Assembly: GCA_035652535.1 (NCBI GenBank)
Contig: DASRDP010000013.1
Location: 6,016-70,015, forward strand
Reading direction: 5' to 3'
Origin: Chloroflexota bacterium
GTDB taxonomy: Bacteria; Chloroflexota; UBA6077; SHYK01
DNA length: 64,000 nucleotides
The translations under genes and the position numbers were made by a program. Numbering within the stretch: the stretch's first letter is position 1; every line of letters begins with the position of its first letter. Shown in pieces: positions 1,617 through 59,705 of this stretch. Under the pieces are notes generated by a model that did not search any database, had not been told where the DNA came from, and was given only the letters and a program-made list of their open reading frames with translations.

Positions 1617-1688
1617 AGCTGAGCAGGGCGCCGCTGGGTGCGCGATGGATGCGTCCCCAGCGGCGCACGCGCGGATTGGGGAGGAGCC

Positions 1689-2957: not shown

Positions 2958-3047
2958 GATGCGCGGGCCGCCGTCGCGAGCAGTGGGCGCCAAGGGCGTG
3001 TAGAATGCGAGCACATGGGCGGCGCCGCCGCCTCCGGAGGTTAGGCT

Positions 3048-4055
3048 ATGGCAAAGGTCGTCTTAGGCATTGGCAGCTCCCATGCTCCGCAGCTCGCTCT
3101 GCCGCCGGAGGAGTGGTGGCGGCGCGCCGAGGCGGACAAGAACAACCCCGCGTTGTGGTTCCACGGCAAGACGTATCGGTTCGACGAGCTGGTGGAAGAG
3201 CGCGCGGCCAGCCACTTCGAACAGGAGCTTTCGCCGGAAACGGCGCAGCATCGATTCAACACGTGCCAGCAAAGCATCGAGGTCTTGGCGCGCACGCTGG
3301 AGGAGGTGAACCCGGACGTCGCGGTCATCCTGGGCGACGATCAGGAAGAATGCTTCCTCGAGGACAACATGCCCGCGCTCTGCGTGTACTGGGGAGAGAC
3401 GATTGACACGGTTCCGCCGCCCCCGAACCGGATCGGCGGCGAATACGGCGCCTCGCGCCCCGAGCTGAGCCGCTATCCCGCCCAGCGCACGGCGAATCCC
3501 TGCCAGCCGGCTCTCGGGCGCCACATTATCGACTGTCTCATCGAGGAGCATTTCGACCCGGCTCACTCGCGCCGCCTGCCCGGCGGGAAGCACGGCGATC
3601 ACGGCGTCGGCCACGCCTTCAGCTACGTGTATCGGCGTCTGATGAAGGACGAGGTCATCCCCAACGTTCCCATTTTCCTCAACACCTACTACCCACCCAA
3701 CCAGCCGACGCTGAAACGGTGCTACGCGCTCGGCAAGGCCCTGCGGCGCGCCATTGAGTCTTGGGAGGAGGACGCGACCGTCGCGCTAATCGCCTCCGGC
3801 GGGCTCAGTCACTTCGTCATCGAAGAGGACTTGGACCAGAATATCGTCGCCGCGCTGAAGGCGAAGGACGGCGATTCCCTCACGAGTTTTCCCGTCGAGT
3901 ACTTCAACTCCGGCACGTCCGAGATTCGAAATTGGATCGTGGTGGCCGGGGCGCTGGAGGAGACGGACCTCAACATGGAGCTGATCGACTACGTGCCCTG
4001 CTACCGGTCCCTGGCCGGCACGGGCTGCGCCATGGGCTTCGCCCGCTGGGTCTAA
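3048..4055 (+). CDS. class III extradiol ring-cleavage dioxygenase, LigB family (protocatechuate/gallate 4,5-dioxygenase-like)
   Basis: The N-terminus (VLGIGSSHAP) is typical of LigB catalytic subunits. A GGAGG ribosome-binding site lies 9 nt upstream, and the product is about 335 aa as expected. Confidence 0.8.
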   Translation: MAKVVLGIGSSHAPQLALPPEEWWRRAEADKNNPALWFHGKTYRFDELVEERAASHFEQELSPETAQHRFNTCQQSIEVLARTLEEVNPDVAVILGDDQEECFLEDNMPALCVYWGETIDTVPPPPNRIGGEYGASRPELSRYPAQRTANPCQPALGRHIIDCLIEEHFDPAHSRRLPGGKHGDHGVGHAFSYVYRRLMKDEVIPNVPIFLNTYYPPNQPTLKRCYALGKALRRAIESWEEDATVALIASGGLSHFVIEEDLDQNIVAALKAKDGDSLTSFPVEYFNSGTSEIRNWIVVAGALEETDLNMELIDYVPCYRSLAGTGCAMGFARWV

Positions 4056-4086
4056 CGCGCCGCAATTGAGTTTTGGTGGAGGAGTC

Positions 4087-4623
4087 GTGAGCCGCTTGCC
4101 CGCTCCAACCCGCGATTCGCTGAACGCGGATGCCCAGGCGATTTGGGACCGCATCGCCGCTGCCCGAACCGGCGGCATGCGCGGGCCCTCGTCGATCCTC
4201 ATGAACATCCCGACACTGGCGGATCGCGTCGATCGAATCGAGGAGTACTTTCGAAACCAGGCGGAGCTGCCGGCGCCCGACCGCGAGCTCATCATTCTCG
4301 CCACCGTCCGAGAGATGGGCGCCCGGTTCGCATGGGCTCGCCATGAAGTTCGCGCGCAGAACGCCGGCACGCGGAAGGAGGCGGTCGAGGTCCTCCGCCA
4401 GCAGGGGCCGACGGACGCGCTAACGCCGCGAGAGCGGGTGATCGTCGACACCGTCCGGACCCTGAGCCGGACGAAGTCGCTTCCGAAAGAGCAGTTCGAC
4501 CAGGCGCTGAAGGCGCTGGGCCAGCGCCAGCTCATCGAGCTGGTCACGCTGATGGGCCAGTACAGCCTCATCGGCTTTGTGATCCAGGCCTTCGAGATCC
4601 CCGAGGAGAGCCCGACCTTTTAG
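4087..4623 (+). CDS. carboxymuconolactone decarboxylase (CMD/AhpD-like) family protein
   Basis: It has an all-alpha CMD-like composition. A GTG start at 4087 is preceded by GGTGGAGGAG, and the gene is co-oriented directly downstream of the LigB gene. Confidence 0.7.
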   Translation: MSRLPAPTRDSLNADAQAIWDRIAAARTGGMRGPSSILMNIPTLADRVDRIEEYFRNQAELPAPDRELIILATVREMGARFAWARHEVRAQNAGTRKEAVEVLRQQGPTDALTPRERVIVDTVRTLSRTKSLPKEQFDQALKALGQRQLIELVTLMGQYSLIGFVIQAFEIPEESPTF

Positions 4624-4645: not shown

Positions 4646-7600
4646 TCACGTCTTCGCGACGGGAGTGGGTGACACGCCCCGCCCAGCGCTCGATCGGGCC
4701 TCCACGTCGGATTCCGCGGCGAGATAGGCCGCCTGGAGCGCGTCGCGGAGATCGGGGGACGGGTCGCGCCAAAGACGCCGGTCCATCGCCTCGAGCAGGC
4801 GCGCCGCGATGTCCCGGAGCGCCCACGGGTTCGCGTCCCGCAAGAACCGCTGCGTCTCGCCGTCCAGCGCGTACGCCTGGGCGACGCGCGCGTACATCCA
4901 GTCGGCGACGACGCCGGCCGTCGCATCGTAACCGAAGAGATAGTCGACCGTCGCGGCCAGCTCGAGCGCGCCCTTGTAGCCATGTCGCCTCATCGACGCG
5001 ATCCACTTCGGATTCGCGACTCGCGTCCGGAAGACGCGCGCCGACTCCTCGCGAAGGTCGCGGACGCGCGGGCGCTGGGGGTCGGCGCTATCCCCGAAAT
5101 ACCGACGCGGGTTCACGCCCGACACCGCGCGGATGGCGGCGATCATGCCGCCGTGGTACTGGAAATAGTCGTCGGAGTCGAAGATGTCGTGCTCCCGGTT
5201 GTCCTGGTTCTTCACGGCGGCGTCGACCGATGCAAGGGAGGCGCGGAACTCGGCCCGCGCGTCCACCCCGTCCACGTCGACTCCATACGCGAACCCGCCC
5301 CAGTTCACGTAGACCTCGGCGAGGTCCGCGTCTGTCTGCCAGTTGCGCTCGTCGATCAACGGAAGGATGCCCGCTCCATAGGCCCCCGGAGGTGATCCGA
5401 AGACGCGGTACGCGGCCCGGCGCGCCGCCTCCTCCGGGCTGGCGCCGCCGCCCACCAGACGTTCCGTCTGCGCCAGGACGTGCCTTCGGACGGCATTCTG
5501 TTCGACCGGCTCGTCCAGCGCGGCAACCGTGCGGAACGCCCGATCCAGGAGCGCGATCAGATCGGGGAACGCGTCCCGGAAGAAGCCCGAGATCCGGCAG
5601 ACGACGTCGATGCGGGGGCGCCCCAGCTCATCGAGGGGAATCACGTCGAAGCCGACCAGGTGGCGACTCTCGGGCTGCCAGCGCGGCCGTACCCCGATGA
5701 GCGCCATGACCTCCGCGACGTCGTCGCCGTGGGTGCGCATCAGACTCGTCCCCCAGACCGAGATGCCGACCGACTCCGGGTATCGTCCCTCCTCGTCCAG
5801 ATGGCGACGGAGCAGCTCGTCGGCGAGCTGGCTCCCGACGGTCCACGCGGCGAGGCTCGGCAAGCTGCGCGGGTCCACCGTGAAGAAATTTCGGCCCGTT
5901 GGCAGGACGTGCGCCATGCCCCGGGTTGGCGCGCCGCTGGGCCCCGGGGGCACATGCTCGCCCTCCAGAGCACGAAGAAGGTTCTCGATCTCCTCATCCG
6001 TCCGTCGGAGATTGGGCACGAGCGTTTCGCACGCGAAGCGCAGCGTCGTCGCGATGGACGCCGCGGCGCTATCCGCCCCGCGAGCCTCGTCGCCGCCGAG
6101 GGCCTGGGGACGCGCGCGCATGACGCCACCAAGCGAAGCGTGCATCGTGGGCTCGATGGCGCCGGGGTTGAACTCAGCCGCGGCAAGCGCCTCGAGGAGC
6201 CGTCGCCCGATCAGATCGATCGCTTCGAGCACGTCCGCATTCGTGGGAAGGGCCCGCCCGACAGCTGCCTCGAGATCGGCAATGGGAGACGGGCTTCCAT
6301 CGCCGCGTCGACGCTGCTCGAGGTCGCCTGGGTCCGTCGCGGGGCCAGGTTGCGACGATTCGGGGCGGGGCCACGCGACTCGGGCGCCCAGGTCGCTGAG
6401 GACGTGCGCGAGGTCGAGCCCGAACCACCGGGCGACTCCGTCGCGCAAGCTCGGGACCCCTGCGTTGGGCAAACGCACCAAGGCGAGGAGGGTATCGATG
6501 AGCTGCGCGCCCGCCGGCGGCTGACCGAGGGTGTGAAGTCCGTCGCGAATCTGCGCGCTCGTCAATTCACACAGGTAGCCGTTGACGTTTTCGATGAGGT
6601 GGGCGAAGTCCCGGGCGCCCATGTCGGAGATGGTATAGGGCACGCCGTCCTCGTGGGCCTGCGGGTCCCAGGGGTGCGTGTGGGTGGCGGAGTCCCGATT
6701 CAGCAGCAGCGCCAGATCCGAATCGAGCCGCGCGCGCTTGATGAGATCCCAGATCTGCTGCTGAAGGAGCGGCAGCTTTTCGGGGTCGAGCTGCTCGAGC
6801 TGGTAGTACTCGTCGACGAGACGGCTCAGCTCCTCGACCTCGCCGTATCCTTCCGCCGTCGTCATCGGCGGCGTGAGATGGTCCACGAGCACCGCGTGGG
6901 CGCGCCGCTTCGCCTGCGCCCCCTCACCTGGGTTGTTGATGATGAAGGGATAGACGAGCGGCAGGTCGCCGAGCATGAGGTCCGGGTAGCACGCGCTGGA
7001 GAGCCCGACGCTCTTCCCCGGAAGCCATTCGAGGGTACCGTGCTTGCCCACGTGGACCATCGCATCTGCGCCCCATCCGCCGTTGTCGATGGACTCGCTC
7101 AGCCATCGATAGAGCGCGAGATAGGGATGCGGCGGGGGGAGGTCCGGCGCGTGATAAATGGCGGACGGATCCATGCCGTACCCTCGAGGAGGCTGGATCG
7201 CCACAAAGACGTTTCCGCAGACGAGGCCCGCGAGGGCAATGCGCTCGCCGTCGACGTAATACGCGCCCGGCGGTGGCCCCCACTGGTCAGTCGTCTCGGC
7301 CCGGCGATTTTCGGGTAGTTCGGCGATCCAGCGCGCGTGCGTCGCCGCGGCCACGTGAACCGGCATATGGCGGAGCTGGTCCGCGGTGAGCACCTCGCGA
7401 TCGTACGACCCCCGCTCGATGAGCTGGTGCAACAGGGCATCGCCCGATTCCGGAAGCTCGCCCACCGAATAGCCCGCCTGCCGCATCGCTTCGAGGATCC
7501 GGAGGACCGAGGCGGGCGTGTCGAGCCCCACCGCGGCGCCAACGCGCGATGCTTTGGCGTTGGCGTTCGTGATGATCACGGCGATCCGCTTTTCCTTCCT

Positions 7601-9139
7601 CGGCTTGCGCCGGAGCGCCGCGATCCGCAAAGCGAAGCCGACCGCGCGCACGACGCCGTCGTGATTGGGCCCGTAGAGCTGACCTGGTGACTCAATCGCC
7701 CCGCCGCTGAGGGTCGGTGGATGCACTTTGAAGCTCACCGGCGGGCCGATGATCCGTCCGTCTAGCTCCGGGATAGCCACGTTCATGGCCGTGTCGACCG
7801 GGGAGAGGCCGCGCGTCGAATCCTCCCACTGGTCGCGCCAGGTCGAGGCGGCGACGGCCTGTACCACCGGCGCGCCGAGCGTCGCGAATGGGTCCGCCGC
7901 GCTCGCCGTGTGATCCGCAACGCCAGCGGCGAAGCTCGTCGTCGTCAGGAGAACGTCGATGGATGCGCGCCCGTCTTCCAAGAAGTAGCGGAGCGCGGCT
8001 GGGACGCGCCCGACCTCCTCATCCGTCTCGTCTCCGTCATCCTGGAGTGAGGAGGTGAAAACGGCGATGGCGCGGGCGCCCCGCCGCTCAACCTCGCCAA
8101 TCAGCGCATCGACGAACTCGGTGTTTCCAGACAGGGCGTGGGATCGATAGAAGAGGATTCCGACCACGGGAGCGCCGGGTGTCCCGCCGTCTTCGTCCGG
8201 CGACCGGTAATAGACGCCGTGGCGTGGCTGTGGCTCCGGCGGGTCATAGCCAAAGCCCGTGGTCAACAGGTGATCGCTGAGGAAGCGGAGCATGTGCTCC
8301 GCGTTCTTCAGCCCGCCGAGCTGGAGATACGCCAGCGCTTCGTGTGCGACGGGGGCGCCGACGTTCGAGGCGGCCGTCAGCTCCGGATCGAGCGTACTGG
8401 TTCCGGGAAGGCAAACCAGCCATTGGTCGTCCTCGCCGGCCCGCTCCACCACGCGCTCGAATCCGCCCCGGAAGCTCGATCTCCCACCCAGCAGCCGAAG
8501 GATGACCACGTCGGCGCCCGGCACCACGGCATCCACGAACGCTCGCGCGTCTGCTTCATCCTTCAGATGGGCGATGTTGAACCCGCGAACCGCGGGGAAC
8601 TCGGGTCCGAGGGACGGGACGACCCGCGACAAGGCGAGAAGGTCGGTGTCCGCGTGCGTCAGGAAGACAAACCCGCCGGGGCCGTCGCCCGCCGCGTGCG
8701 ACGCCACCATGGGGTGCGCGTGGCCATCGGCGTCCCAGCCGAAGGCGTTGAACTGAAGATGGGCCAGCTCCGGCGGGGGGGGCAGATAGGCCTGCGCGGC
8801 GACCATGCTCTCGATGTAGTCGTAGAGATCCAGAACCAGCCGCTCGCTATTGAACGACTGAAACCAGATAGGCCGACCGTCGAACAGCAGCATGACGACG
8901 TTCGCCAGGGTGCAGGGCCCCAGGCAGCCACCGATGGAGAGGTGCACGTGCGGCCGGAGGCGTCGCCGCTCCCACTCGGCGTGGTACAGGTCGGTGGGGA
9001 CCGGCGCCGCGCCGTGGACCGTGTCGCCGCAGCAGCACCCCATGGCGCAAACGAAGAGCTGACCGCGCTTGCGCGCGACGTTGACGAGCTTGCCATCCGA
9101 CCGGGTGACCAGATTCCGCACGATGCGGCGCTGGGTCAA
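4646..9139 (-). CDS. cobN: cobaltochelatase subunit CobN with N-terminal fused thioredoxin-like [2Fe-2S] ferredoxin domain
   Basis: At about 1497 aa it is a CobN/Mg-chelatase-H family protein lying directly downstream of cobO. The N-terminal roughly 140 aa (QLFVCAMGCCCG ... IGGCLGPCTLANVVMLLFDGRPIWFQ) match the C-x3-C...C-x3-C thioredoxin-like ferredoxin pattern. It has a TTG start that overlaps the cobO stop (TTGA). Confidence 0.8.
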   Translation of the reverse strand: MTQRRIVRNLVTRSDGKLVNVARKRGQLFVCAMGCCCGDTVHGAAPVPTDLYHAEWERRRLRPHVHLSIGGCLGPCTLANVVMLLFDGRPIWFQSFNSERLVLDLYDYIESMVAAQAYLPPPPELAHLQFNAFGWDADGHAHPMVASHAAGDGPGGFVFLTHADTDLLALSRVVPSLGPEFPAVRGFNIAHLKDEADARAFVDAVVPGADVVILRLLGGRSSFRGGFERVVERAGEDDQWLVCLPGTSTLDPELTAASNVGAPVAHEALAYLQLGGLKNAEHMLRFLSDHLLTTGFGYDPPEPQPRHGVYYRSPDEDGGTPGAPVVGILFYRSHALSGNTEFVDALIGEVERRGARAIAVFTSSLQDDGDETDEEVGRVPAALRYFLEDGRASIDVLLTTTSFAAGVADHTASAADPFATLGAPVVQAVAASTWRDQWEDSTRGLSPVDTAMNVAIPELDGRIIGPPVSFKVHPPTLSGGAIESPGQLYGPNHDGVVRAVGFALRIAALRRKPRKEKRIAVIITNANAKASRVGAAVGLDTPASVLRILEAMRQAGYSVGELPESGDALLHQLIERGSYDREVLTADQLRHMPVHVAAATHARWIAELPENRRAETTDQWGPPPGAYYVDGERIALAGLVCGNVFVAIQPPRGYGMDPSAIYHAPDLPPPHPYLALYRWLSESIDNGGWGADAMVHVGKHGTLEWLPGKSVGLSSACYPDLMLGDLPLVYPFIINNPGEGAQAKRRAHAVLVDHLTPPMTTAEGYGEVEELSRLVDEYYQLEQLDPEKLPLLQQQIWDLIKRARLDSDLALLLNRDSATHTHPWDPQAHEDGVPYTISDMGARDFAHLIENVNGYLCELTSAQIRDGLHTLGQPPAGAQLIDTLLALVRLPNAGVPSLRDGVARWFGLDLAHVLSDLGARVAWPRPESSQPGPATDPGDLEQRRRGDGSPSPIADLEAAVGRALPTNADVLEAIDLIGRRLLEALAAAEFNPGAIEPTMHASLGGVMRARPQALGGDEARGADSAAASIATTLRFACETLVPNLRRTDEEIENLLRALEGEHVPPGPSGAPTRGMAHVLPTGRNFFTVDPRSLPSLAAWTVGSQLADELLRRHLDEEGRYPESVGISVWGTSLMRTHGDDVAEVMALIGVRPRWQPESRHLVGFDVIPLDELGRPRIDVVCRISGFFRDAFPDLIALLDRAFRTVAALDEPVEQNAVRRHVLAQTERLVGGGASPEEAARRAAYRVFGSPPGAYGAGILPLIDERNWQTDADLAEVYVNWGGFAYGVDVDGVDARAEFRASLASVDAAVKNQDNREHDIFDSDDYFQYHGGMIAAIRAVSGVNPRRYFGDSADPQRPRVRDLREESARVFRTRVANPKWIASMRRHGYKGALELAATVDYLFGYDATAGVVADWMYARVAQAYALDGETQRFLRDANPWALRDIAARLLEAMDRRLWRDPSPDLRDALQAAYLAAESDVEARSSAGRGVSPTPVAKT

Positions 9140-9765
9140 AACTCGATCCCCGGTTGCGCTTTGATCCCAGACTGGTATGGATGCTTGATCTCGCGCATCT
9201 CCGTCACCAGATCGGCAAATTCGATCAGCTCTGGCGGCGCGTCCCGGCCGGTGATGATCACGTGCTGGCCCTCTGGTCTAGTCCGGAGCACGCCGATGAC
9301 TTCCTGGACGTCGAGCCAGCCGAATTTGAAGCAGTACGTCATCTCGTCCATGATGACGATATCGTACTGCCCGCTCTCGATGCGCTCGCGGCACTGGCGC
9401 CAGCACTCCTGCGCCAGCGCGCGATCGCGATCGATGTCTTTGCTGGTCCAGGTGAAGCCGTCGCCGAGGGGGATGATCTCGACGCCCATCTTGCGCGCAG
9501 CCCGAATCTCGCCCCAATTCGCCGTCTTCGCCTTGATGAATTGGAGCATGACGACCGGCATCCCGCGCCCCCACGCGCGGAGGAGGACGCCCAAGGCGGC
9601 CGTGGTCTTTCCCTTGCCATTCCCCGTATTGACGAGCACGAGCCCTTTCGCGCGACGATTCGGATGCGCCCGGACGGCCGCTTGCTCTTCCCGTTTTCGG
9701 GCGCGGCCGGTGTCCGAGAGGTCGTCGAGAGGCGCATCCGGGCGCGCGCCGATCTCGGGGCTCAT
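9136..9765 (-). CDS. cobO: cob(I)yrinic acid a,c-diamide adenosyltransferase (CobO/BtuR)
   Basis: It contains the P-loop VNTGNGKGKTTAALG that is typical of CobO. Its ATG overlaps the upstream gene's stop as ATGA. Confidence 0.9.
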   Translation of the reverse strand: MSPEIGARPDAPLDDLSDTGRARKREEQAAVRAHPNRRAKGLVLVNTGNGKGKTTAALGVLLRAWGRGMPVVMLQFIKAKTANWGEIRAARKMGVEIIPLGDGFTWTSKDIDRDRALAQECWRQCRERIESGQYDIVIMDEMTYCFKFGWLDVQEVIGVLRTRPEGQHVIITGRDAPPELIEFADLVTEMREIKHPYQSGIKAQPGIEF

Positions 9766-11942
9766 CCCGGCGCCCCCGTCGTCGCGGGGGCTTCGGGCGC
9801 CCACGCCTGTTCTACGATCTCGATGGGGCCGTCCTGCTCGATGACTTCCCAGCGGCTGACGTCCTCCTCACGCCAGAATCGCAGGCTCACCCGCGCTTGT
9901 CCGATCCGCAACCCGCACAGCTCGAGGTCGGGAAGCCAGCGCGGCAGCGTTGGAGCGACGTAGAGCTTGCCGGCCGGCGCGTCTCCTCGCAGCCCGAGGA
10001 TCGCCTGGACCAGGTGAAAAATAGACCCCGCCGCCCAGGCCTGCGGGATGTTCGCTCCGGCGTATTGGACCGGGTAGCTGGTCGTCCGTCGTGGAAGCCC
10101 GCTATACAGCTCGGGCAGTCGATAGCTGGCATGGTAGCGCGCGGCCTCGAAGATGTCGCGGGCGACCCGGTTCGCCTCCTCCGAGAATCCATAGCGCTTG
10201 AATCCCAGCGCAATGATTCCGTTGTCGTGAGGCCAGACCGACCCACGCTGATACGAAAAAGGGTTGTAGGAGGGGTTGAGGGACGTCAGCGTGCGGATTC
10301 CCCATCCGCTGAACATGTCGTCCTGCATGAGTCGGCGCACGACGCGCTCGGCGCGCTCGGGCAGTGCGATTCCGCTCCAGAGACAATGGCCGGCGTTGGA
10401 CGCGATGGTCTTCACGGGCTGCTTCTCCGGGTCTAGGCAGAATGCGTAGAAGCCGATGTCCTCACACCAGAACGCCTGGTCGAATCGCCGCTTGAGCTCG
10501 GCGGCGTCCGCCCTGAGCCGCTCGGCCCGCTTCGGCTCGCCCAGCACGTCGAAGACCTCGGCCATGCGCCGCTTGGCGTCGAACACATATCCCTGGAGCT
10601 CGCAGAGGGCTTTCGGCTGCCTGACCATTCGCCCGTCCGGGTAGACGATGGCGTCGCCCGCGTCCTTCCATCCCACGTCTTCATATCCTTGCGGCGAGCG
10701 CGAGCGGTATTCCTGGAATCCATCGCCGTCGACGTCCCCGCAGTGATCGATCCATTCGAGGCAGCGCAGCGCGGTCTGCCGGTGCTCACGAAGCAGCGCA
10801 GTGTCCCCGATCCACTTCCACGCCTCGTGCAGCACGATGAGATAGAGGATGGTGGCGTCGGCCGTCCCGTAGTAGGGGGTGTGAGGGATTTTGTGGAAGT
10901 GGGCCAGCTCGCCGACCCTCAGCTCATGGGGAATCTTCCCGGGCTCGGCGTCGCGCCAGTCGTCGAACTCTGTCGCCTGGTATTCGGCGAGCTTCGCCAG
11001 GGCTCCGCGTGCCAGGGCGGGATAGATCAGCATATTCTGCATGCTGACAATCAGCGTGTCCCGGCCGAAAATCGTCACGAACCACGGGACGCCGGCCGCC
11101 GGGAGCCACACGTCCGGCGCAAAATCCTCGTCATAGAGTCTCAGGGCGCCCATGTCCTCGACGGACTGAGTGTAGGCGCGATACACGTGCTCGTTGCTGG
11201 AATTCAACCGCGTTGCCATCGCCCGCCAGTCAGTTTGGAGCCGGTCCATCGCGGTGTCGCCCGTGTTCGCGATCGCGTGGCAGGTATAGAGCGGTTGGCG
11301 CGCTCTGCCGCCCTCTACCAGGACGTAGTGCGCGCACGCGTGCCATGATTCCCCTGGCGATAACGTAACCTCGAATACGACCCGCCCATTCGCGTAGTCG
11401 GGCTCTGAATCGCAGTTCAACAGCCGGTAGATGAAACGCCGGTGAAAGTCGCGATTGCTGTACGACGTGACCAGCTGCGCCCGACTGGGGTACCAGCGCG
11501 TCGTGGTGCGGCCACGGCGAACAAATCGGTGTCCTTTGACCTCGAAGAGGTCCGCGAAGTCCGAGAGTAACGCCACCTGAAGCTGGAAGCGGACCTGGTG
11601 GTCGGCGAAGCTGACGAGATCGAGATCCTCGTGGATTCCATCGCCAACCGTCCGGGTCACCGTCAGTCCCACCTGGTTGGTTCCGATCTCGCCATCTTCC
11701 GTTGAGATCGGTGGGTTGGCAAAGTGCAGACGAGCGGCGTAGTAGCTCACGGGGCTCGACGTGAGGAGATTCCAGCGCTCCTCGTTGATGTACAGCTTGT
11801 AGAAGCTGACGAACCGCGTGTCCCCGGCGAAGACACCCTGCTCGCTGGCGGGCTCGATCTCGCCGCGTTCGTCGGTCACCATGAACGTGCGGTCCTGGCT
11901 GATCGTCAGCCCGGTGGTTCCGACTTTGATCTCGATCGGCAT
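9762..11942 (-). CDS. glycogen debranching enzyme-like protein (amylo-alpha-1,6-glucosidase family, GDE_N + GDE_C)
   Basis: The C-terminal region (GWGIRTLTSLNPSYNPFSYQRGSVWPHDNG) is a GDE_C signature. The start MPIEIKVGTTGL has a ribosome-binding site AAAGGG upstream. Confidence 0.8.
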   Translation of the reverse strand: MPIEIKVGTTGLTISQDRTFMVTDERGEIEPASEQGVFAGDTRFVSFYKLYINEERWNLLTSSPVSYYAARLHFANPPISTEDGEIGTNQVGLTVTRTVGDGIHEDLDLVSFADHQVRFQLQVALLSDFADLFEVKGHRFVRRGRTTTRWYPSRAQLVTSYSNRDFHRRFIYRLLNCDSEPDYANGRVVFEVTLSPGESWHACAHYVLVEGGRARQPLYTCHAIANTGDTAMDRLQTDWRAMATRLNSSNEHVYRAYTQSVEDMGALRLYDEDFAPDVWLPAAGVPWFVTIFGRDTLIVSMQNMLIYPALARGALAKLAEYQATEFDDWRDAEPGKIPHELRVGELAHFHKIPHTPYYGTADATILYLIVLHEAWKWIGDTALLREHRQTALRCLEWIDHCGDVDGDGFQEYRSRSPQGYEDVGWKDAGDAIVYPDGRMVRQPKALCELQGYVFDAKRRMAEVFDVLGEPKRAERLRADAAELKRRFDQAFWCEDIGFYAFCLDPEKQPVKTIASNAGHCLWSGIALPERAERVVRRLMQDDMFSGWGIRTLTSLNPSYNPFSYQRGSVWPHDNGIIALGFKRYGFSEEANRVARDIFEAARYHASYRLPELYSGLPRRTTSYPVQYAGANIPQAWAAGSIFHLVQAILGLRGDAPAGKLYVAPTLPRWLPDLELCGLRIGQARVSLRFWREEDVSRWEVIEQDGPIEIVEQAWAPEAPATTGAPG

Positions 11943-15078: not shown

Positions 15079-15606
15079 ATGTCCTCGCCGTTCCCACGCT
15101 CACTGTCCGCTCGTCTCGCTGTCCTGGCTGGCTTGAGCGCGTTCGCCATCGGAATGTTCGCCAACGCGGTGCTGATTGCCGATCCGAGGGCGGAGGCCCA
15201 GGACGACTGCACACAGCCCTCAGACTCGGGATGCCCGATGGGCATGAACACGCCGTTTCAGGCCGCGCTGACGGACCCTTCAACGCAGCACACGTGGCTC
15301 CTCGACGTGGCGGACACGACCGACTTCACCGTCACGCTCACCAACCTGGCTGGCGACTACGAGCTGACCGTCTACGGCCCCGACGGATCTCTGTACGGCT
15401 CGTCCGACAATGGCGGGACGCAGGATGAGGTGGTTCCGGTGACGAATCTCGGCGTGGGAACGTACACCGTGGTGGTCGACAGTCTGAGCGGCGATTCCAG
15501 CGACACGCCATACACCGTCATCGCGACCCAGGCCGCTCCCCCCACGCCGATCACCTTCACAACCTACGGAACCCCGGTCCCCAAGTCGTTCTCATCCTAT
15601 CGCTAG
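15079..15606 (+). CDS. secreted protein with pre-peptidase C-terminal (PPC)-like domain
   Basis: A signal peptide is present (cleavage near AEA/QDD). It is Thr/Asp/Gly-rich, and the segment DYELTVYGPDGSL...GTYTVVVDSLSGD resembles a PPC-type beta-sandwich. Confidence 0.6.
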   Translation: MSSPFPRSLSARLAVLAGLSAFAIGMFANAVLIADPRAEAQDDCTQPSDSGCPMGMNTPFQAALTDPSTQHTWLLDVADTTDFTVTLTNLAGDYELTVYGPDGSLYGSSDNGGTQDEVVPVTNLGVGTYTVVVDSLSGDSSDTPYTVIATQAAPPTPITFTTYGTPVPKSFSSYR

Positions 15607-17732
15607 TCGCGAAAAACGAGCCGGTCGAGGACCACGAGATCGTCGACGCGCTTGAAGCGCAGCGGCGGGGGGACGGGACCATTGTCTGCAGATCGGTATC
15701 GGAGGTGGAATTCGGCGACGCGCGCCGCCGTGACCCCTGGCGGGAGCGTCGGGGTGATGCCGCCCTCCTGGACCCAGTAGATCGGCCGTCCATTCGCCGC
15801 CAGTCGTGCCATGGACGCGGAAATGGCGGGCGTCAGCGCGCCAGTCGGGAGAGCGAAGGCGTCGACGCCGAGATCGAGGTCGAGTGGGAGCGCCGCGTGG
15901 ATCCCTGTGGGACCGGCGGAGAAGACGACTACGGCGCCCGGCTCGACCGCCCTGGCAATCGCGTCGAGCGCCGCTATCGTCCCGGAAGCGTGGCGCGGAC
16001 CGACGAAGTCGCGGTCCTGAACGACGCCCATCGCCACGCCCAGCCCGAAGAGGATCGCCGCGAGCGGGCATCCGAGCACGCGCGCCCCGGTCCACCATTC
16101 GCGCGCCACGGCCGCCAGGGCGCGTGGCTGTCGGTTTGCGGAGCCCACGAGAGCGCCGCCCGTCTCAGGGGAAGAAGACCCAGCCGCGGCGTCGGACCAG
16201 CCCGGCGCGCGCCACAGAGCGGTGGCGCCGACGCTGGCCAGCATCGCGATGAGCGGCACGACGGCTGGTACCAGCCGGCGTACCATCCACGGATGGTCGC
16301 CCGTCACGAGCGGGTCCGGAAGATACAGCAGGGCCGGCAGACCGGCAATGATCAGGACGGGCATGAGCTGGCGCGGGGCGCCGCGCCAGCCGGTCACAGC
16401 AAGCCCGATGGCCGTGAGAACGAGGATCGGCCAGGGTACATACCCGGCCACCCAGGCGATGGGTGACCCGGCGCCCTCGGTTGGGTCGCGGCCTGCGTTC
16501 GGCGCCACGCCGATCAGCGCCGCGCCCAGGCCAACGACGGCGACCGCGAGCGCCACACCTCTGCGCGCTCCAAGCCACGCCCGAGCGTGGCGGGACGGGA
16601 GGTCTCTCAGCCTCCAGCCTGCCGACCGCGTAGCCACGATCGCGGCGACCAGACCCGCGGCCGCCGCGATGCCGATCGCTCCGCGAGTCGCGGTGAAGCC
16701 GCTGTAGGTGGTCGCCACGTAGATGGGCGCGACGAGCGCATAATGGGCAATCGCCGCGACGAGGCCGGCGCCGCCGATCAATGCCAACCATCGGCGCCCG
16801 TCGTTCGGACTACCCTGTGCGAGGAGCCCGACCGCGAGCACGAGAAGCACACCGTCCGCCCGAGCAAGGAGGGCCGCGGCGGCGCTGAGCGCGGCCAACC
16901 CCGCCCATCGACTCGACCCTTCAGTTCGCCACCGAATGACACTCCAGGCGCTGATCCATGTAAAGGCGCCCAGCACCGGCTCCGCCATTGGCTCGCGCGC
17001 CCACCACACCTGGGCAAACGAGGTGGCGAGGAGGACGCCAACGATAGCCCATGACGGCCGGGGGTCGGTACGACGGCCGCACGTCGCCGCGGCGGCCAAC
17101 ATCGCGTACGCGAGGGCGAGGGCCCCGAATGCGCCGGAGACGTGCAGCGCCCCCTCGACTCCGGCCACACTGGCCGCCAGCGCGATCCACACGGGGAGAA
17201 CGGGCAGAAAGCCGCCCTCCACGGTCCCGCCGTCGAGGTCGCGGATGAACAGCTGCGTCGGGAACCGGATGCGCGCGTGGTTGAGGACGTTCTCGAAGAA
17301 CCAATCGTTCACCTCGGTTGGACGCAGACCGGACGCCAGCTCGGCGAGGGCGGGATCGTGGATCGTCGTTCCACCCCAGCGCGAGATCGCGAAGCCGGTG
17401 GCGACGTACACCGCTGGATCGCGCGGCCCGACGATGTTTTCGGATCCCGGGGCGATGAGAGCGCAGCCGACCGCCAGGATTGCGGCGGCGATTGCCGCGT
17501 CGTGGCCCGGGCGAAAGCCCCGAGGATCGATCGGCGGTCGCCACCACAGCGCCGTAGCCACCGCGACAATGCTGACAGCGGCGCCAGCGAGGAGCGGACC
17601 AAACCATCCGAAGTCCGCGACGAGGACCAGCGTGAGCGAGGCGCCCGACACGGTTGCGCCGAGCCAAGCCGCCCATCGATCCAGCCCGGTAATACGCTGT
17701 CGCTCCCCGATCGTCGGCATGAGATGGGTCAT
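15603..17732 (-). CDS. large polytopic integral membrane protein (possible GT-C-type glycosyl/arabinosyl transferase-like)
   Basis: It is 709 aa with many hydrophobic segments throughout. Its function is uncertain. Confidence 0.55.
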   Translation of the reverse strand: MTHLMPTIGERQRITGLDRWAAWLGATVSGASLTLVLVADFGWFGPLLAGAAVSIVAVATALWWRPPIDPRGFRPGHDAAIAAAILAVGCALIAPGSENIVGPRDPAVYVATGFAISRWGGTTIHDPALAELASGLRPTEVNDWFFENVLNHARIRFPTQLFIRDLDGGTVEGGFLPVLPVWIALAASVAGVEGALHVSGAFGALALAYAMLAAAATCGRRTDPRPSWAIVGVLLATSFAQVWWAREPMAEPVLGAFTWISAWSVIRWRTEGSSRWAGLAALSAAAALLARADGVLLVLAVGLLAQGSPNDGRRWLALIGGAGLVAAIAHYALVAPIYVATTYSGFTATRGAIGIAAAAGLVAAIVATRSAGWRLRDLPSRHARAWLGARRGVALAVAVVGLGAALIGVAPNAGRDPTEGAGSPIAWVAGYVPWPILVLTAIGLAVTGWRGAPRQLMPVLIIAGLPALLYLPDPLVTGDHPWMVRRLVPAVVPLIAMLASVGATALWRAPGWSDAAAGSSSPETGGALVGSANRQPRALAAVAREWWTGARVLGCPLAAILFGLGVAMGVVQDRDFVGPRHASGTIAALDAIARAVEPGAVVVFSAGPTGIHAALPLDLDLGVDAFALPTGALTPAISASMARLAANGRPIYWVQEGGITPTLPPGVTAARVAEFHLRYRSADNGPVPPPLRFKRVDDLVVLDRLVFRD

Positions 17733-17800
17733 CCGTCACCGCGAAGCGGCGGGCCCACGTGTATCATCAGCCGGTCACCCTGCCGCGCGGAGTATGTCTC

Positions 17801-18016
17801 ATGAACCCCAGCCACCTGAAGCCCGGCGCGCAGTACACCCTATCGGACGGCAGCATCGCGGAAGTGCAGCGAGTGCTCCCGGGAAGTATCAACGTCCAGG
17901 TGCGCTACATCGACTCGCTGGACAATCCCGAGATCCCGGTTGGCGCCGAGCGTGAAGTCCCGTTCGAGGAGATCATCGCGGAGTACCTAGGGACCCACGC
18001 CGAGGGCTTGACGTAG
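17801..18016 (+). CDS. small hypothetical protein (71 aa)
   Basis: The ATG is preceded by GGAG and the composition is coding-like. I know of no family match. Confidence 0.35.
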   Translation: MNPSHLKPGAQYTLSDGSIAEVQRVLPGSINVQVRYIDSLDNPEIPVGAEREVPFEEIIAEYLGTHAEGLT

Positions 18017-55930: not shown

Positions 55931-56329
55931 TCAGCGGGTCGACGCTGGACTGGGCGCCCTCCGTTGCATAGCCATGTGCGCGGCCAACGCGATGAGGAGC
56001 GCCGCCTCGATCGCCTTCGAAGCATATCCGAGCCCCCTGGGGTTGGGAAGGCCGTAGACGACCCAGCCGACGATCGCGGCGGCCGCGAAGAGCGCCAGCC
56101 CCGCGTCGACCACCCACGCCCATGGGCGCGGGTGGCGAGCGGTGATCAGGACCGCTCCAACCAGGATGACATAGCCGATCGCGTTCAAAACGAAGAGCTG
56201 GTTGAGCGGCAGGAACAGCCTGGGCGGGGGCCCGGGCACCGGGCCGAAGAGGTTACCCCTGAACAGGATGAAATCGAGCGCGAAATGAAGCACGCCGTCG
56301 GCCAGCGCGAGCGCGACGATGACCCACAT
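55931..56329 (-). CDS. small hypothetical membrane protein (~4 TM)
   Basis: It has hydrophobic helices (MWVIVALALADGVLHFALDFILF...). The start is uncertain (56329 or 56368). Confidence 0.5.
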   Translation of the reverse strand: MWVIVALALADGVLHFALDFILFRGNLFGPVPGPPPRLFLPLNQLFVLNAIGYVILVGAVLITARHPRPWAWVVDAGLALFAAAAIVGWVVYGLPNPRGLGYASKAIEAALLIALAAHMAMQRRAPSPASTR

Positions 56330-56461
56330 CAACAAGCGCGATTGGTCGGGGGAGGGTGAGGTGCGCACGGGACCGGGCTCCGAAGATGGTCGAGTATGGC
56401 CGTCCCGGAAATTTTCTCAAACGCGTAGCCTACTGTCAGGTCGCCGAACGGTTAAAGCCCC

Positions 56462-57421
56462 TCACGACTTCTGTTCAAACGCTGGCGGATGGCCGAACGT
56501 ATGCTCGTAGTCTCGCTGCAGCTCATCAGGAATGAAGCGCTGCTCGATCTCGCGGACGAAATCGGCGTTTACGAGCTTCGAGGACGATGCGGGACCCCAA
56601 CGACTAGATCGAAACTGTTTGGCCCAATCGTCGATGGCGGGGGATCCGCGCTCCTTCAAGTCGTTCAGGACCTGCCACGCGGCCTGAACAGCGGCGGTTG
56701 CCGCGATCGTCGGATACAGCGCGATTCGCGCGCCAAGGGACCGGAGCTCCTCGGTGTTCGGTCCTGGCTGTGGTCCACCCCATAGCGGAAGCACCGGGGC
56801 CGGAATCCGCTGGCAGGCCTCGCGCAGCTCATCACGCGTGGTAACGTTGTTCAGCCATACGAAATCAGCGCCCCCGTCGGTGACGTAGGCGATCGACCGA
56901 TCGAGGGCCTCGGAAAAGTTTCCGCCCTCGGACCCCATCACGTCGCACCGAGCGCAGATGACGAAATCCGGATCGATCTCGTTCTTGGCCGCGACCGCCG
57001 CTTGAATCTTGCCAATCGCCTCTTGTTTGGAGATGCAGCGTCGACCCGAGACCGTGCCGGACTTCTTCGGCGCCTCCTGGTCCTCGATGTTGACCGCAGC
57101 CACGCCTGCCCGCACAAACTCCTGAACCGCGTAGTAGACGTTCACGGCGTTGCCGTAACCCGTGTCGGCGTCGACCTGGATCGGAATCGTGCATCGAGCC
57201 GCTACGTGCCGCGCGTGGTCCACCATGTCGCGAAGGCCGATGATACCGACGTCCGGCACGCCGTAGAGAAAGCCAGACGTCTGCGAGCCGGCGATGAAAT
57301 ACGCTTCGAAGCCAACGACCTCGGCCATCTTGGCGAGAAGTGGGCTGAAGCCGCCGGGCATGACAAACAGCTCGGGCCGATTGATGCGCTCGCGAAAGCG
57401 AGTCGTCGCCTTCGTCGCCAC
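56462..57421 (-). CDS. isocitrate lyase / PEP mutase superfamily protein with non-canonical active-site loop
   Basis: The family core (VMPGGFSPLLAKMAE, IQVDADTGYGN, NIEDQ) is present. A GTG start is preceded by GGAAGGAG. The loop after EDQ reads APKKSGTVSGRRC in place of the K(K/R)CGH of ICL/methylisocitrate lyase. Confidence 0.75.
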   Translation of the reverse strand: MATKATTRFRERINRPELFVMPGGFSPLLAKMAEVVGFEAYFIAGSQTSGFLYGVPDVGIIGLRDMVDHARHVAARCTIPIQVDADTGYGNAVNVYYAVQEFVRAGVAAVNIEDQEAPKKSGTVSGRRCISKQEAIGKIQAAVAAKNEIDPDFVICARCDVMGSEGGNFSEALDRSIAYVTDGGADFVWLNNVTTRDELREACQRIPAPVLPLWGGPQPGPNTEELRSLGARIALYPTIAATAAVQAAWQVLNDLKERGSPAIDDWAKQFRSSRWGPASSSKLVNADFVREIEQRFIPDELQRDYEHTFGHPPAFEQKS

Positions 57422-57629
57422 TCGCTTCTCCTTCCAGGGACGGGATGTTCCATATCCGGGACGCAGAAGATGGGCAATTGTAGCCCGTTCGGTCGGACGG
57501 GAGGCTTTCGGTCGGATGAGGACGGCGGCGCGCCGCCGCCCTCCGGCGCCGGAAACGCTGGACCGGCCGAATCGCAAGCCAGTACAGTCACGCGAGTTGG
57601 TGCGGGCGGACTCAATCACGCCGTCGGCA

Positions 57630-58067
57630 ATGCGCGCGGAAGTCGCCCGCGAGCGGAGGTGGAGCTTGGCAGGCGCCCCAGAATACTCGGACGTGCTTCG
57701 AGCACTGGGCCGCTTTCTGGACGAGGTCCAAGCCTTTGGCATCGAGATCGTCGACGAGGGCGATGAATGGATCGTGGCTTGGAACGGGCCGGGGCTCCAG
57801 AGGCTCGAGCGCTTCCACTTGGAGGCCCTCCGGGAAGTCGCCCGGATGAACCGGGGGCTTGAGGGGGACATCCCCCGCTTTACGACGTCGCAGATGCTTC
57901 GCGTGCTGGGGACCGTGCTCGAAGACCTGCGCGCCACCCAGTTCTCGATCAAAGAGATCGAGGATGGGTATCGACTGAGCGCGCTCGTCGACGGGAAACA
58001 GGTCGTCCAGGCCTATACCCTCGATCAGCTCCAGCTGCTGGCCGCGGAGCGCCTGCAGCAGCGTTGA
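57630..58067 (+). CDS. hypothetical protein with internal tandem duplication of a ~60-aa domain (paralog 2)
   Basis: Its N-terminus PEYSDVLRALGRFLDEVQAFGIEIVDE matches DYSDTLRALGRFLEEIRALNVRIQD of paralog 1. It has a second repeat, LRVLGTVLEDLRATQFSIKE. Confidence 0.6.
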   Translation: MRAEVARERRWSLAGAPEYSDVLRALGRFLDEVQAFGIEIVDEGDEWIVAWNGPGLQRLERFHLEALREVARMNRGLEGDIPRFTTSQMLRVLGTVLEDLRATQFSIKEIEDGYRLSALVDGKQVVQAYTLDQLQLLAAERLQQR

Positions 58068-58073
58068 GAGCGG

Positions 58074-59705
58074 TCAGTCGACGATGGCGGTTGACACGGC
58101 CGGCCGCTCCACAAAGGTCTCATCGGCGCCAAAGGTACGGCGAAGCGGTACGTCTCGCAGCAGGAAGGATAGCGCGGTCGCGATGGCCAGCACGACCGCC
58201 CCGGTTAGGAATACGTGCTGCAGCGAGGTGGCGAGGGCAAACCGGATCGCCTCCAGCACCGTATCCGTCAAATTCGGCCCCGATGGCCCCAGCTGATCGA
58301 GGACCCCGTGGAGCTCCCGCGCCGCTCCAGGGTTGAGGAGCGCCTCGGGGTTGCTGAATATCGCGGCCTGGGACCCTCCGAGCGCTGAACGAACCTCGGG
58401 CGGGAGCGCCTGGGCCAGGGCGGGCGCGTAACCGTTCGCCAGCATGCTGCCCAGGAGCGCAGCGAACACCGTGGCTCCGATGGACCGCAGGAATTGCACC
58501 AGCGCGGTCGCGACGCCGATTTGGTGAAGGCCGACGGCGTTCTGCGCCGCGAGGTTGAAGCACGGGAAGGTCGCGCCGACGCCAGCCCCAAGAATCACCA
58601 TGTTGCGCACGACGACTCCGTAGTCCGTATCCACGCCCATCGCACTCAGGAGGTACATCCCCACGGTGGCTGCGACAATGCCGCCGATCGCCACCGACTT
58701 GTAGCGTCCGACCCGGCCAATGACCTGCCCGCAGACGACGCTGGAAACGACCATCGCTACCATCATCGGGGCCAGAACAGTTCCGCTCTGGGAGGCCGAC
58801 GTGCCGATGACGGCCTGAATGAACAGAGGTACGAAGAGGGACGCGGCGAAGCTCCCCGCCATCGAGAGGCAGGCCAGAACCGAGCAGACGGTCACCTCCC
58901 GATTTCTGAAGAGGTCCAACGGCAAGATCGGCTCCGGGGCATGGCGTTCCGCCGCGATGAACGCCGCCAGCGTTGCCGACGCGACGGCGAAGAGCCCCGC
59001 GATGACCGGGGAAGACCACGGGTAGTCTCGTCCGCCCCAGGTCAGCGCGAGCATCAACGAGACCACGCTCGCAATGAGGAGCGCTGCGCCGAGATAGTCC
59101 AGGGAGTGCCGCCGTCCCGCCATGCGCGCGTCCGTGAAGGCGGACCAGAGGACGGCGATGGCAATCGCCCCGACCGGCACGTTGACGTAGAAGACCGATC
59201 GCCAGGTGAAGGCGTCGGTAAGGTAGCCGCCGAGGAGCGGGCCAGCGATGCTGGCCACGCCAAACGTCGCGCTGAAAATCCCCTGGACTTTCGCTCGCTG
59301 CGCGGGTGGGAAGAGGGCCGACGCCACTGCCATGGTGACGGCGAACAGGATGCCCCCACCGATTCCCTGGAGCCCCCGAAATATCGCGAGCTGCGTCATG
59401 TCCTGCGAGAGGCCGCAAAACATGGAGGTCACCACGAAGAACGTCGCGCCCCCGACGAGAAATCGCTTGCTGCCGTACATGTCCGACAGCCGTCCCACGA
59501 TCGGCACCACCGCGGTGCTGGTCAGCAGGTACGCGGTCGTCGCCCAGGCGTAGTGGTCGAAGCCCTGCAGGTCGGCCACGATGCGCGGCATCGCCGTGCC
59601 GACGATCGTTTGATCGAGGGCCGCGAGGAGGATCGTGACCATCAGGCCCGCCATCGTCGCGTAGACCTGTGGCCGGGAGAGATTCTGATACGGGTTCTGA
59701 ATCAA
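58074..59705 (-). CDS. MFS transporter, DHA2 (14-TMS drug:H+ antiporter) family
   Basis: It has 14 TM segments and the N-terminal motifs GTAMPRIVADL and GRLSDMYGSKR. Confidence 0.85.
   Translation of the reverse strand: MIQNPYQNLSRPQVYATMAGLMVTILLAALDQTIVGTAMPRIVADLQGFDHYAWATTAYLLTSTAVVPIVGRLSDMYGSKRFLVGGATFFVVTSMFCGLSQDMTQLAIFRGLQGIGGGILFAVTMAVASALFPPAQRAKVQGIFSATFGVASIAGPLLGGYLTDAFTWRSVFYVNVPVGAIAIAVLWSAFTDARMAGRRHSLDYLGAALLIASVVSLMLALTWGGRDYPWSSPVIAGLFAVASATLAAFIAAERHAPEPILPLDLFRNREVTVCSVLACLSMAGSFAASLFVPLFIQAVIGTSASQSGTVLAPMMVAMVVSSVVCGQVIGRVGRYKSVAIGGIVAATVGMYLLSAMGVDTDYGVVVRNMVILGAGVGATFPCFNLAAQNAVGLHQIGVATALVQFLRSIGATVFAALLGSMLANGYAPALAQALPPEVRSALGGSQAAIFSNPEALLNPGAARELHGVLDQLGPSGPNLTDTVLEAIRFALATSLQHVFLTGAVVLAIATALSFLLRDVPLRRTFGADETFVERPAVSTAIVD

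Follow-up and report, generated by a model that had tools for sequence, protein, structure and literature searches.

A serine-loop clade of the ICL/PEP-mutase superfamily lacking the lyase cysteine, represented in a Chloroflexota genome

A gene for a 319-aa protein of the isocitrate lyase/phosphoenolpyruvate mutase (ICL/PEP-mutase) superfamily is located at 56462..57421 on the minus strand of a 64,000-nt stretch of a Chloroflexota bacterium genome (GenBank assembly GCA_035652535.1, contig DASRDP010000013.1, positions 6,016 to 70,015), which as a whole is called the window here. From its translation, Pfam and structure searches, the gene was assigned to a clade in which the gating loop of the superfamily lyases carries Ser in place of the catalytic Cys. 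The open reading frame (ORF) is intact, with its stop codon at 56462-56464, and a Shine-Dalgarno-like sequence (GGAAGGAG, 57428..57435, minus strand) lies 6 nt upstream of the GTG start at 57421-57419. Codon-position GC is 0.65/0.47/0.76 within this ORF, a typical coding pattern, and 0.52/0.69/0.76 in the upstream extension of a longer ORF with a TTG start; because the pattern in the extension is atypical, the GTG start is favored. The 90% identity cluster of the protein includes NCBI HZT05839.1, from a Chloroflexota metagenome-assembled genome (MAG).

The initial annotation placed the protein in the superfamily from its DADTGYGN (residues 84-91) and NIEDQ (residues 111-115) motifs, and this placement was borne out by Pfam and by structure prediction. 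Pfam PEP_mutase PF13714 was matched over residues 9-253, the full barrel (E=1.2e-41, 143.3 bits against a cut-off of 31.5 bits), and the AlphaFold2 (AF2) model of the monomer was a TIM barrel with a mean predicted local distance difference test score (pLDDT) of 93.1. Foldseek with this model gave template modelling (TM) scores of 0.76-0.80 to structures of methylisocitrate lyase, 2,3-dimethylmalate lyase (DML), oxaloacetate hydrolase (OAH), and PEP mutase (PEPM) (9hhy, 1mum, 3fa3, 3m0j, 5unc), and phmmer against PDB matched methylisocitrate lyases, DML, and the YqiQ-type 4iqd at ~1e-37. The predicted TIM-barrel fold is ordinary for the superfamily. Within the gating loop, the pLDDT falls to ~80 (residues 121-130), in keeping with loop mobility.

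The gating loop lacks the K(K/R)CGH sequence of the lyases, as had been read in the initial annotation. The loop occupies residues 116-135 (EAPKKSGTVSGRRCISKQEA), and in the segment made up of EDQ and the gating loop (IEDQEAPKKSGTVSGRR, residues 112-128, 57038..57088, minus strand) Lys119 is kept, Ser121 (57059-57061) stands for Cys, and Thr123 (57053-57055) stands for His. PKKSGT was aligned without gaps to PKKCGH of 4iqd and AKRCGH of Escherichia coli PrpB (1mum) by phmmer, and profile alignment of 75 clade members against PrpB with hhalign gave the same register. Since the two methods agree, the Cys to Ser and His to Thr replacements are considered real, and a hidden canonical loop was rejected. 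No Cys/His pair that would restore the lyase motif was found in the alignments; the sole nearby Cys is C129 (GRRC), 8 residues downstream.

Other active-site residues were compared in E. coli PrpB numbering, using a verified PrpB sequence, and conservation was scored in a 75-sequence alignment of the clade (mean column identity 66%). The residues for binding Mg2+ and an alpha-oxo or alpha-hydroxy acid are all kept. DADTGYGN (57149..57172, minus strand), with the Mg2+-binding D84 and D86 aligned to PrpB D85/D87, is invariant in the clade, as is the third conserved acidic residue, Asp57 (57251-57253, minus strand). With E113 and R158, these make up the superfamily acidic Mg2+ set (PrpB D58, D85, D87, E115) and the Arg of the A-R-x-D motif. 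The full invariant set in the alignment comprises D57, D84, D86, E113, D114, Q115, K119, K120, R158, and D160.

Lyase residues outside the loop have been exchanged as well. The oxyanion-hole segment F-I-A-G-S-Q (residues 42-47, 57281..57298, minus strand) corresponds to PrpB Y43-L-S45-G46-G47-G, with Tyr43 replaced by Phe42 and Gly47 by Ser46 (both invariant in the clade) and Ser45 by Ala44 (at least 90%). In W189-L190-N191 (56849..56857, minus strand), Trp189 (invariant) replaces Phe186, and Asn191 (at least 90%) replaces PrpB Glu188, which is the position of His190 in PEPM. PrpB Arg241, the ligand of the distal carboxylate, has no conserved counterpart: the clade has a variable T/S/A at position 242. 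It can be speculated from sequence that the neutral or aromatic Ser121, Thr123, Asn191, Gln47, Trp189, Trp214, and Phe42, which stand in for succinate-binding and acid/base residues, form a differently shaped and less anionic distal pocket.

Several of these positions have been mutated in Coxiella PrpB, where C118S, E182Q, K116Q, E110Q, R152Q, D54N, and D81N abolished activity and Y40F and H120Q strongly lowered it (bioRxiv 10.1101/2025.01.06.631558). Two of the inactivating changes are naturally present in the window protein (Cys to Ser, and Glu to Asn where the tested mutant was Glu to Gln), and two of the crippling positions are changed (Tyr to Phe, and His to Thr where the tested mutant was His to Gln). 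The equivalents of Coxiella K116, E110, R152, D54, and D81, which are inactive when mutated, are all kept.

The best matches among characterized proteins were PrpB (TIGR02317; 1mum, 9hgk), DML (3fa3), and the YqiQ-type 4iqd, at E~1e-37, ~30-38% core identity, and TM scores of 0.76-0.79. The window protein shares with them the barrel, Mg2+ ligands, EDQ, Arg158, a VREIE-like C-terminal motif, and the length and register of the loop (P/A-K-K/R-x-G-x), and it differs from PrpB at Cys123 (Ser), His125 (Thr), Glu188 (Asn; Coxiella Glu182, essential), Tyr43 (Phe), Ser45 (Ala), and the unconserved Arg241. Every NCBIfam equivalog model scored far below its cut-off: prpB TIGR02317 (206.4 bits against 354.4), prpB NF008455 (171.9 against 353), CPEP mutase TIGR02319 (163.6 against 420.05), phosphonopyruvate hydrolase (PPH) TIGR02321 (103.2 against 374.4), PEPM TIGR02320 (82.6 against 319.55), and ICL TIGR01346 (50 against 276). 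By analogy with the PrpB mutants, we infer that the window protein is probably not a (methyl)isocitrate, dimethylmalate, or OAH-type lyase of known mechanism. Database names of clade proteins are generic or transferred ('2-methylisocitrate lyase-like', '2,3-dimethylmalate lyase', 'oxaloacetate decarboxylase'); on the active-site evidence the two lyase labels appear wrong and the decarboxylase label unproven.

The initial annotation had considered the loop closer to the P-K-x-N-S loop of PEPM or PPH than to that of the lyases, and had raised the possibility of a phosphonate (P-C bond-forming or -cleaving) or decarboxylase-type activity. The PDB-verified loops are CLEDKLFPKTNSLHDGR (EDKLFPKTNSL) in PEPM 1m1b, EDKRFPKVNSF in PEPM 5unc, and MEDKTFPKDTSLR (EDKTFPKDTSL) in PPH 2dua. 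The window protein has the fold and the Mg2+ site in common with these enzymes, its loop likewise opens with Pro-Lys, and its Ser121 falls at the position of PPH Thr118 and PEPM Asn122, a hydroxyl residue as in PPH, which is what a PEPM- or PPH-like enzyme acting on a P-C bond would have in its favor. However, the Ppm-specific motif in use, EDKX5NS (PMC8942020), is departed from at three positions by EDQEAPKKSG (Q for K, Ser for Asn122, Gly for Ser123), and Asn191 takes the place of PEPM His190. Pro-Lys is not specific to PEPM, as PK(K/R)CGH is found in many Cys-loop proteins, for instance, PKKCGH in 4iqd. The profile scores fell in the order prpB (206 bits), CPEP mutase (164), PPH (103, against 374 for TIGR02321), and PEPM (83, against 320 for TIGR02320). 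The likeness to the PEPM/PPH loop consists of Pro-Lys and one hydroxyl residue only and was rejected as an assignment; the gating loop is better described, from the alignments, as a lyase-type loop with two substitutions.

Gene context gave the same picture. Phosphonopyruvate decarboxylase and other phosphonate genes, a search for which had been proposed, were found neither among the ~40 window ORFs scanned with Pfam nor within ~5 kb of 20 clade members (147 ORFs, Pfam), and a thiamine pyrophosphate (TPP)-binding motif was found in none of 351 neighbor ORFs. We infer from the motif, profile scores, and context that the window protein is probably neither a PEP mutase nor a phosphonopyruvate hydrolase. 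The phosphonate part of the initial proposal is accordingly very improbable, and the decarboxylase part is retained as possible.

The Ser loop is widely conserved. Essentially all of the best 120 protein-database matches, at 60-100% identity, carry EDQE(A/S)PK(K/R)S(G/A/S)T.AGRR, and EDQEAPKKS(G/A)T is kept in at least 116 homologues at 55-88% identity from Chloroflexota, Binatia, Actinomycetota, and Alpha- and Betaproteobacteria. The most distant clade members picked from the protein matches were ~72% identical to each other. When one genome per species was used, loop-Ser members at 50-61% identity were found in Stellaceae, Beijerinckiaceae, Xanthobacteraceae, the cultured Pigmentiphaga daeguensis JCM 14330, and MAGs of Actinomycetota, Binatia, Dehalococcoidia, and Chloroflexota; beyond the clade, identity dropped to 41% for a PKKSGS variant, the next match, and to 40% or less for the Cys-loop proteins that came after it. 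Overall, identity to Cys-loop relatives does not exceed ~42%. Soil and groundwater metagenomes contain the clade in abundance.

Ser121 is invariant in the 75-sequence alignment, and Thr123 is present in at least 90%. Over 24 loci, Ser121 is encoded by TCC, TCG, TCT, and TCA, that is, the codons have drifted synonymously with the amino acid held fixed. Judged by this conservation, the Cys to Ser and His to Thr replacements are a clade signature beyond chance and not a one-off. The loss of the canonical catalytic Cys, Glu, and His could also point to a catalytically dead pseudoenzyme or a ligand-binding protein, but the metal ligands, Arg158, and Lys119 are invariant, conservation at the replaced positions is complete for Ser121 and Phe42 and at least 90% for Thr123, Asn191, and Ala44, and the clade gene is often found within catabolic operons. 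The conservation of the replaced positions suggests selection on a specific active site, and a dead protein is hardly to be expected. In one alphaproteobacterial MAG (L024:10001-10931), the clade gene reads EDQEAPKKSRHRGRPS, an apparent frameshift within the gating loop, which is either a pseudogene or an assembly error.

A superfamily tree, which had been called for in the initial annotation, was built by neighbor joining (NJ) from 103 full-length representatives with PA4872 as outgroup, 50 bootstraps, and the chimeric fragment P0144 removed. The representatives came from an exhaustive search at 50% identity, which yielded 8071 superfamily members; among these, the Ser-loop clade consists of one full-length representative (P0121) and fragments. 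The clade was monophyletic in 50/50 bootstraps (60% support with the chimeric fragment included), and the protein fell outside any characterized lyase clade. P0125, with the loop PPKSGPRRRC, was the sister of the clade in 49/50 bootstraps. The wider branch around the clade and P0125 was weakly supported and includes the non-canonical loops PKKAGN, PKKSGGG, PKRTGG, and PKRCGF.

Sister lineages in this branch (P0125, P0181, P0134, P0126, P0129, P0146) share no more than 46% identity with the window protein, and several of them also lack Cys or His (PPKSGPRRRC, PKKAGN, PKKSGGG, PKRTGG, PKRCGF). Asn191 is shared by P0125 alone among the relatives, and the full F42/A44/S46/Q47/S121/T123/W189/N191 signature is found in none of the sister lineages. 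Same-branch uncharacterized lineages with non-canonical loops were also noted more broadly (P0125, P0175, P0126, P0134, P0138, P0181, P0233, P0237, P0245; loops PPKSGPRRRC, PKRTGG, PKKSGGG, PKLTGD, PKKAGN, PKKGGI, PKKSST), and many further loops of the branch read PKRCGF, PKRCGQ, or PKRCGS without His. The variety of Cys- and His-less loops indicates that the lyase Cys or His was lost repeatedly. Elsewhere in the family, seven loci (L028, L038, L041, L043, L048, L053, L059) carry two Cys-loop ICL/PEPM paralogues each, tandem or divergent and mostly 1-2.5 kb apart (~6 kb in L043), which suggests that in other branches such pairs act in sequence or as heteromers.

The C-terminal extension of about 30 residues described in the initial annotation proved roughly right in length, as the window protein exceeds the 296 aa of PrpB by 23 and the 287 aa of PA4872 by 32, but it is not specific to the clade. 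Confident alignment to PrpB stops at residue 261, after which 58 residues remain, against 36 in PrpB; this region, which cannot be aligned to PrpB (residues 262-319, 56465..56638, minus strand), has a conserved VREIE..F(L/I)P motif. Within it, R303-D304-Y305..T308.G310 is invariant, and H311 is present in most members (56489-56515, minus strand). A YLPxE..(R/K)(D/K)Y tail motif is also found in the sister lineages, including those with a Cys loop, so the tail is a feature of the wider branch, and a clade-specific tail was rejected. In solved members of the superfamily, the C-terminal segment crosses to the neighboring subunit.

PA4872 of Pseudomonas aeruginosa is a Cys-less oxaloacetate decarboxylase of the superfamily that acts via a Mg2+-bound pyruvate enolate, and its Tyr212 and His235 are reportedly implicated. 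The PA4872 sequence used here was verified at 100% against PDB 3b8i. Over 270 residues it shares 31% identity with the window protein, and the loop Cys is absent in both. The PA4872 loop (IEDTLLPAQFGRKST) is unrelated to that of the window protein (IEDQEAPKKSGTVSG) and contains no Lys. Opposite His235 the clade has a variable position, occupied by Thr238 in the window protein; the Tyr212 position is aromatic, with Trp214 in the window protein and Trp or Tyr in the clade; and an R-D-Y tripeptide occurs near the C-terminus of both proteins. Orthology was rejected on the identity, the unrelated loop, and the missing His235 equivalent, and PA4872 serves as a mechanistic precedent.

Neighborhoods of other clade members were surveyed in the 147 ORFs within ~5 kb of the 20 members mentioned above. 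The recurring families were Rieske (10 ORFs, 8 with LigXa_C), TctC (9), MFS (8), Amidohydro_2 (7), NMT1 binding proteins (5), FAD aromatic-ring hydroxylases (4), LysR (4), cupins (4), and aldehyde dehydrogenases (3). Genes directly adjacent to the clade gene encode a LigB-type dioxygenase (L010), a gentisate-dioxygenase-like bicupin (L008), DHDPS-type aldolases (L009, L015), Rieske LigXa-like proteins (L004, L012, L015), and TctC (L009, L014, L019). In two distinct contexts (L004/L005; L006/L007), an Amidohydro_2 gene and the clade gene share a 4-nt overlap, an arrangement that suggests translational coupling; the coupled protein is LigY/LigJ-like in one (5vn5 2e-49; 2gwg 3.5e-39) and LigW/ACMSD-type decarboxylase-like in the other. 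The clade loci have in common the import and degradation of aromatic or other carboxylates, and the enzymes concerned form or use 2-oxo acids and 2-hydroxydienoates. A single conserved operon partner was looked for and rejected in favor of this recurring family theme.

At L001:8993-10759 (plus strand), a 588-aa protein with no Pfam match begins in an ATGA-type overlap with the clade-gene stop and is possibly a specific partner in that alphaproteobacterial-type locus. On a Chloroflexota-type contig (L002:9979-16963), a clade member lies beside a type I CRISPR-Cas operon (Cas2, Cas4-Cas1 fusion, Cas5d, Cas8b-like, Cas3), probably by coincidence.

Two other C-C bond-cleaving activities can be considered. 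One is a lyase or retro-aldolase acting on a substrate with a pre-stabilized leaving carbanion, a LigK/GalC analogue releasing pyruvate enolate from 4-hydroxy-2-oxo acids such as 4-hydroxy-4-methyl-2-oxoglutarate or 4-carboxy-4-hydroxy-2-oxoadipate. The window protein has the lyase set of loop architecture, Lys119, Arg158, Glu113, and Mg2+ site, the products of the LigJ/LigY-like hydratase/hydrolase neighbors are such oxo acids, and DHDPS-type pyruvate aldolases are encoded nearby. This activity is rather unlikely, as four residues needed or strongly contributing in PrpB are replaced and the Arg241 position is T/S/A. The other is an OAH-like C-C hydrolase whose substrate would be a 2,4-dioxo or oxalyl-type acid supplied by a ring-cleavage pathway, in line with OAH being among the closest solved relatives (3lye E=2.3e-33; Foldseek 3m0j) and with the ring-cleavage and meta-cleavage-type genes of the context. 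The OAH family keeps the KRCGH loop, and an acetate-type leaving group would need Cys-dependent protonation; hydrolysis of this kind is the more doubtful of the two.

In the window itself, the next two genes downstream on the strand of the ICL-like gene encode a small DUF7475-like membrane protein (55931-56368, minus strand) and then P1 (55355-55882, minus strand). P2 (~57630-58067, plus strand) is divergent from the ICL-like gene and is followed by an MFS transporter gene (58074-59705, minus strand). P1 and P2 are paralogues that share 36% identity over 116 aa and match nothing in Pfam or NCBIfam; each apparently consists of two similar ~55-aa modules (xxLRxLGRxL(D/E)E..A....I). The flanking of the ICL-like gene by P1 and P2, pointed out in the initial annotation, is thus seen in the window, but both genes were absent from the neighborhoods of 21 other clade loci and, with no family match, were rejected as functional partners. 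A 181-aa ORF beyond P1 (54763-55308, minus strand) has no Pfam or NCBIfam match and a weak coding third-position GC (GC3) of 0.70 and may not be a real gene. Upstream of the ICL-like gene group are VOC dioxygenase-like, class II aldolase, cupin, nitroreductase, alpha/beta hydrolase, luciferase-like monooxygenase, and methyltransferase genes, the class II aldolase having a sub-threshold resemblance to PhtC decarboxylase.

At the far end of the window from the ICL-like gene, a small aromatic ring-cleavage cluster (1638-4623, plus strand) encodes a LigXa-like Rieske oxygenase (1638-2957, plus strand), a LigB-type extradiol dioxygenase (3048-4055, plus strand), and a CMD-family protein (4066-4623, plus strand), preceded by an SBP_bac_5 binding protein (45-1616). 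The gene families of this cluster are those recurring beside Ser-loop clade members in other genomes. It is followed by aerobic cobalamin-pathway genes (4646-9804, minus strand), in which CobN (1497 aa) adjoins the corrinoid adenosyltransferase CobO. A 709-aa ORF (15603-17732, minus strand) with a GC3 of 0.81 and no Pfam match lies in the 2-kb bin (16001-18000) where the AT skew of the window is strongest (+0.234).

The best explanation of these results, held at a rough probability of 0.55, is that the Ser-loop clade is a discrete and widely distributed group that arose within the methylisocitrate-lyase-like branch and that its members are functional Mg2+-dependent 2-oxo-acid enzymes of aromatic-carboxylate catabolism with thiol-free enolate chemistry, neither lyases of a known type nor PEPM/PPH. 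In such an enzyme, the Mg2+ site (D57, D84, D86, E113), Arg158, Lys119, and the oxyanion hole would bind a 2-oxo- or 2-hydroxy-carboxylate and stabilize its enol(ate). The lyase proton-transfer set has been swapped out (Cys to Ser121, Glu to Asn191, His to Thr123, Tyr to Phe42), and the reaction would be one that needs no thiol acid, on a 2-oxo acid from the lower part of aromatic-carboxylate catabolism. The leading candidate would be a PA4872-like reaction in which an oxaloacetate-like (beta- or vinylogous beta-keto) acid loses CO2 to leave a Mg2+-bound enolate. Substrate and reaction are speculative; in falling order of likelihood, the reactions may be decarboxylation, retro-aldol cleavage of a 4-hydroxy-2-oxo acid with pyruvate enolate leaving, and OAH-like C-C hydrolysis.

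Several points weigh against this explanation. The analogy to the PA4872 decarboxylase is one of mechanism across 31% identity, a different loop, and no His235. The effect of Cys to Ser in PrpB mutants may not carry over to a co-evolved active site. The clade neighborhoods share no single conserved operon partner and indicate a general theme, not a substrate, and the window copy lies outside any obvious catabolic operon, its same-strand neighbors being a small membrane protein and an unknown protein. A characterized clade member was sought in the open-access literature and none was found there, although one may have been missed elsewhere.

A bolder proposal can be put forward only tentatively, with clearly less confidence than the thiol-free 2-oxo-acid enzyme as such. 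The Ser-loop clade might represent a new catalytic type, a Cys-independent C-C cleaver (decarboxylase/retro-aldolase) with which Chloroflexota, Binatia, Actinomycetota, and Proteobacteria would carry out a so far overlooked lower-pathway step in the degradation of aromatic carboxylates, lignin-derived or other, and in which the R-D-Y..T-x-G tail, usually with its His and possibly from the neighboring subunit, would supply the acid/base function.

The superfamily is well known and already holds several subfamilies of unknown function, so the clade is a well-defined target for function discovery and no categorical surprise. The cultured carrier Pigmentiphaga daeguensis JCM 14330 (L009) makes its function directly testable. 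New chemistry for a textbook mechanistically diverse superfamily would follow from defining the clade reaction. As the clade spans several phyla and recurs beside LigXa-type O-demethylase oxygenases, LigY/LigJ/LigW-like amidohydrolases, and ring-cleavage dioxygenases, defining that reaction could also fill a gap in the pathways by which poorly cultured bacteria process aromatic and lignin-derived carbon.

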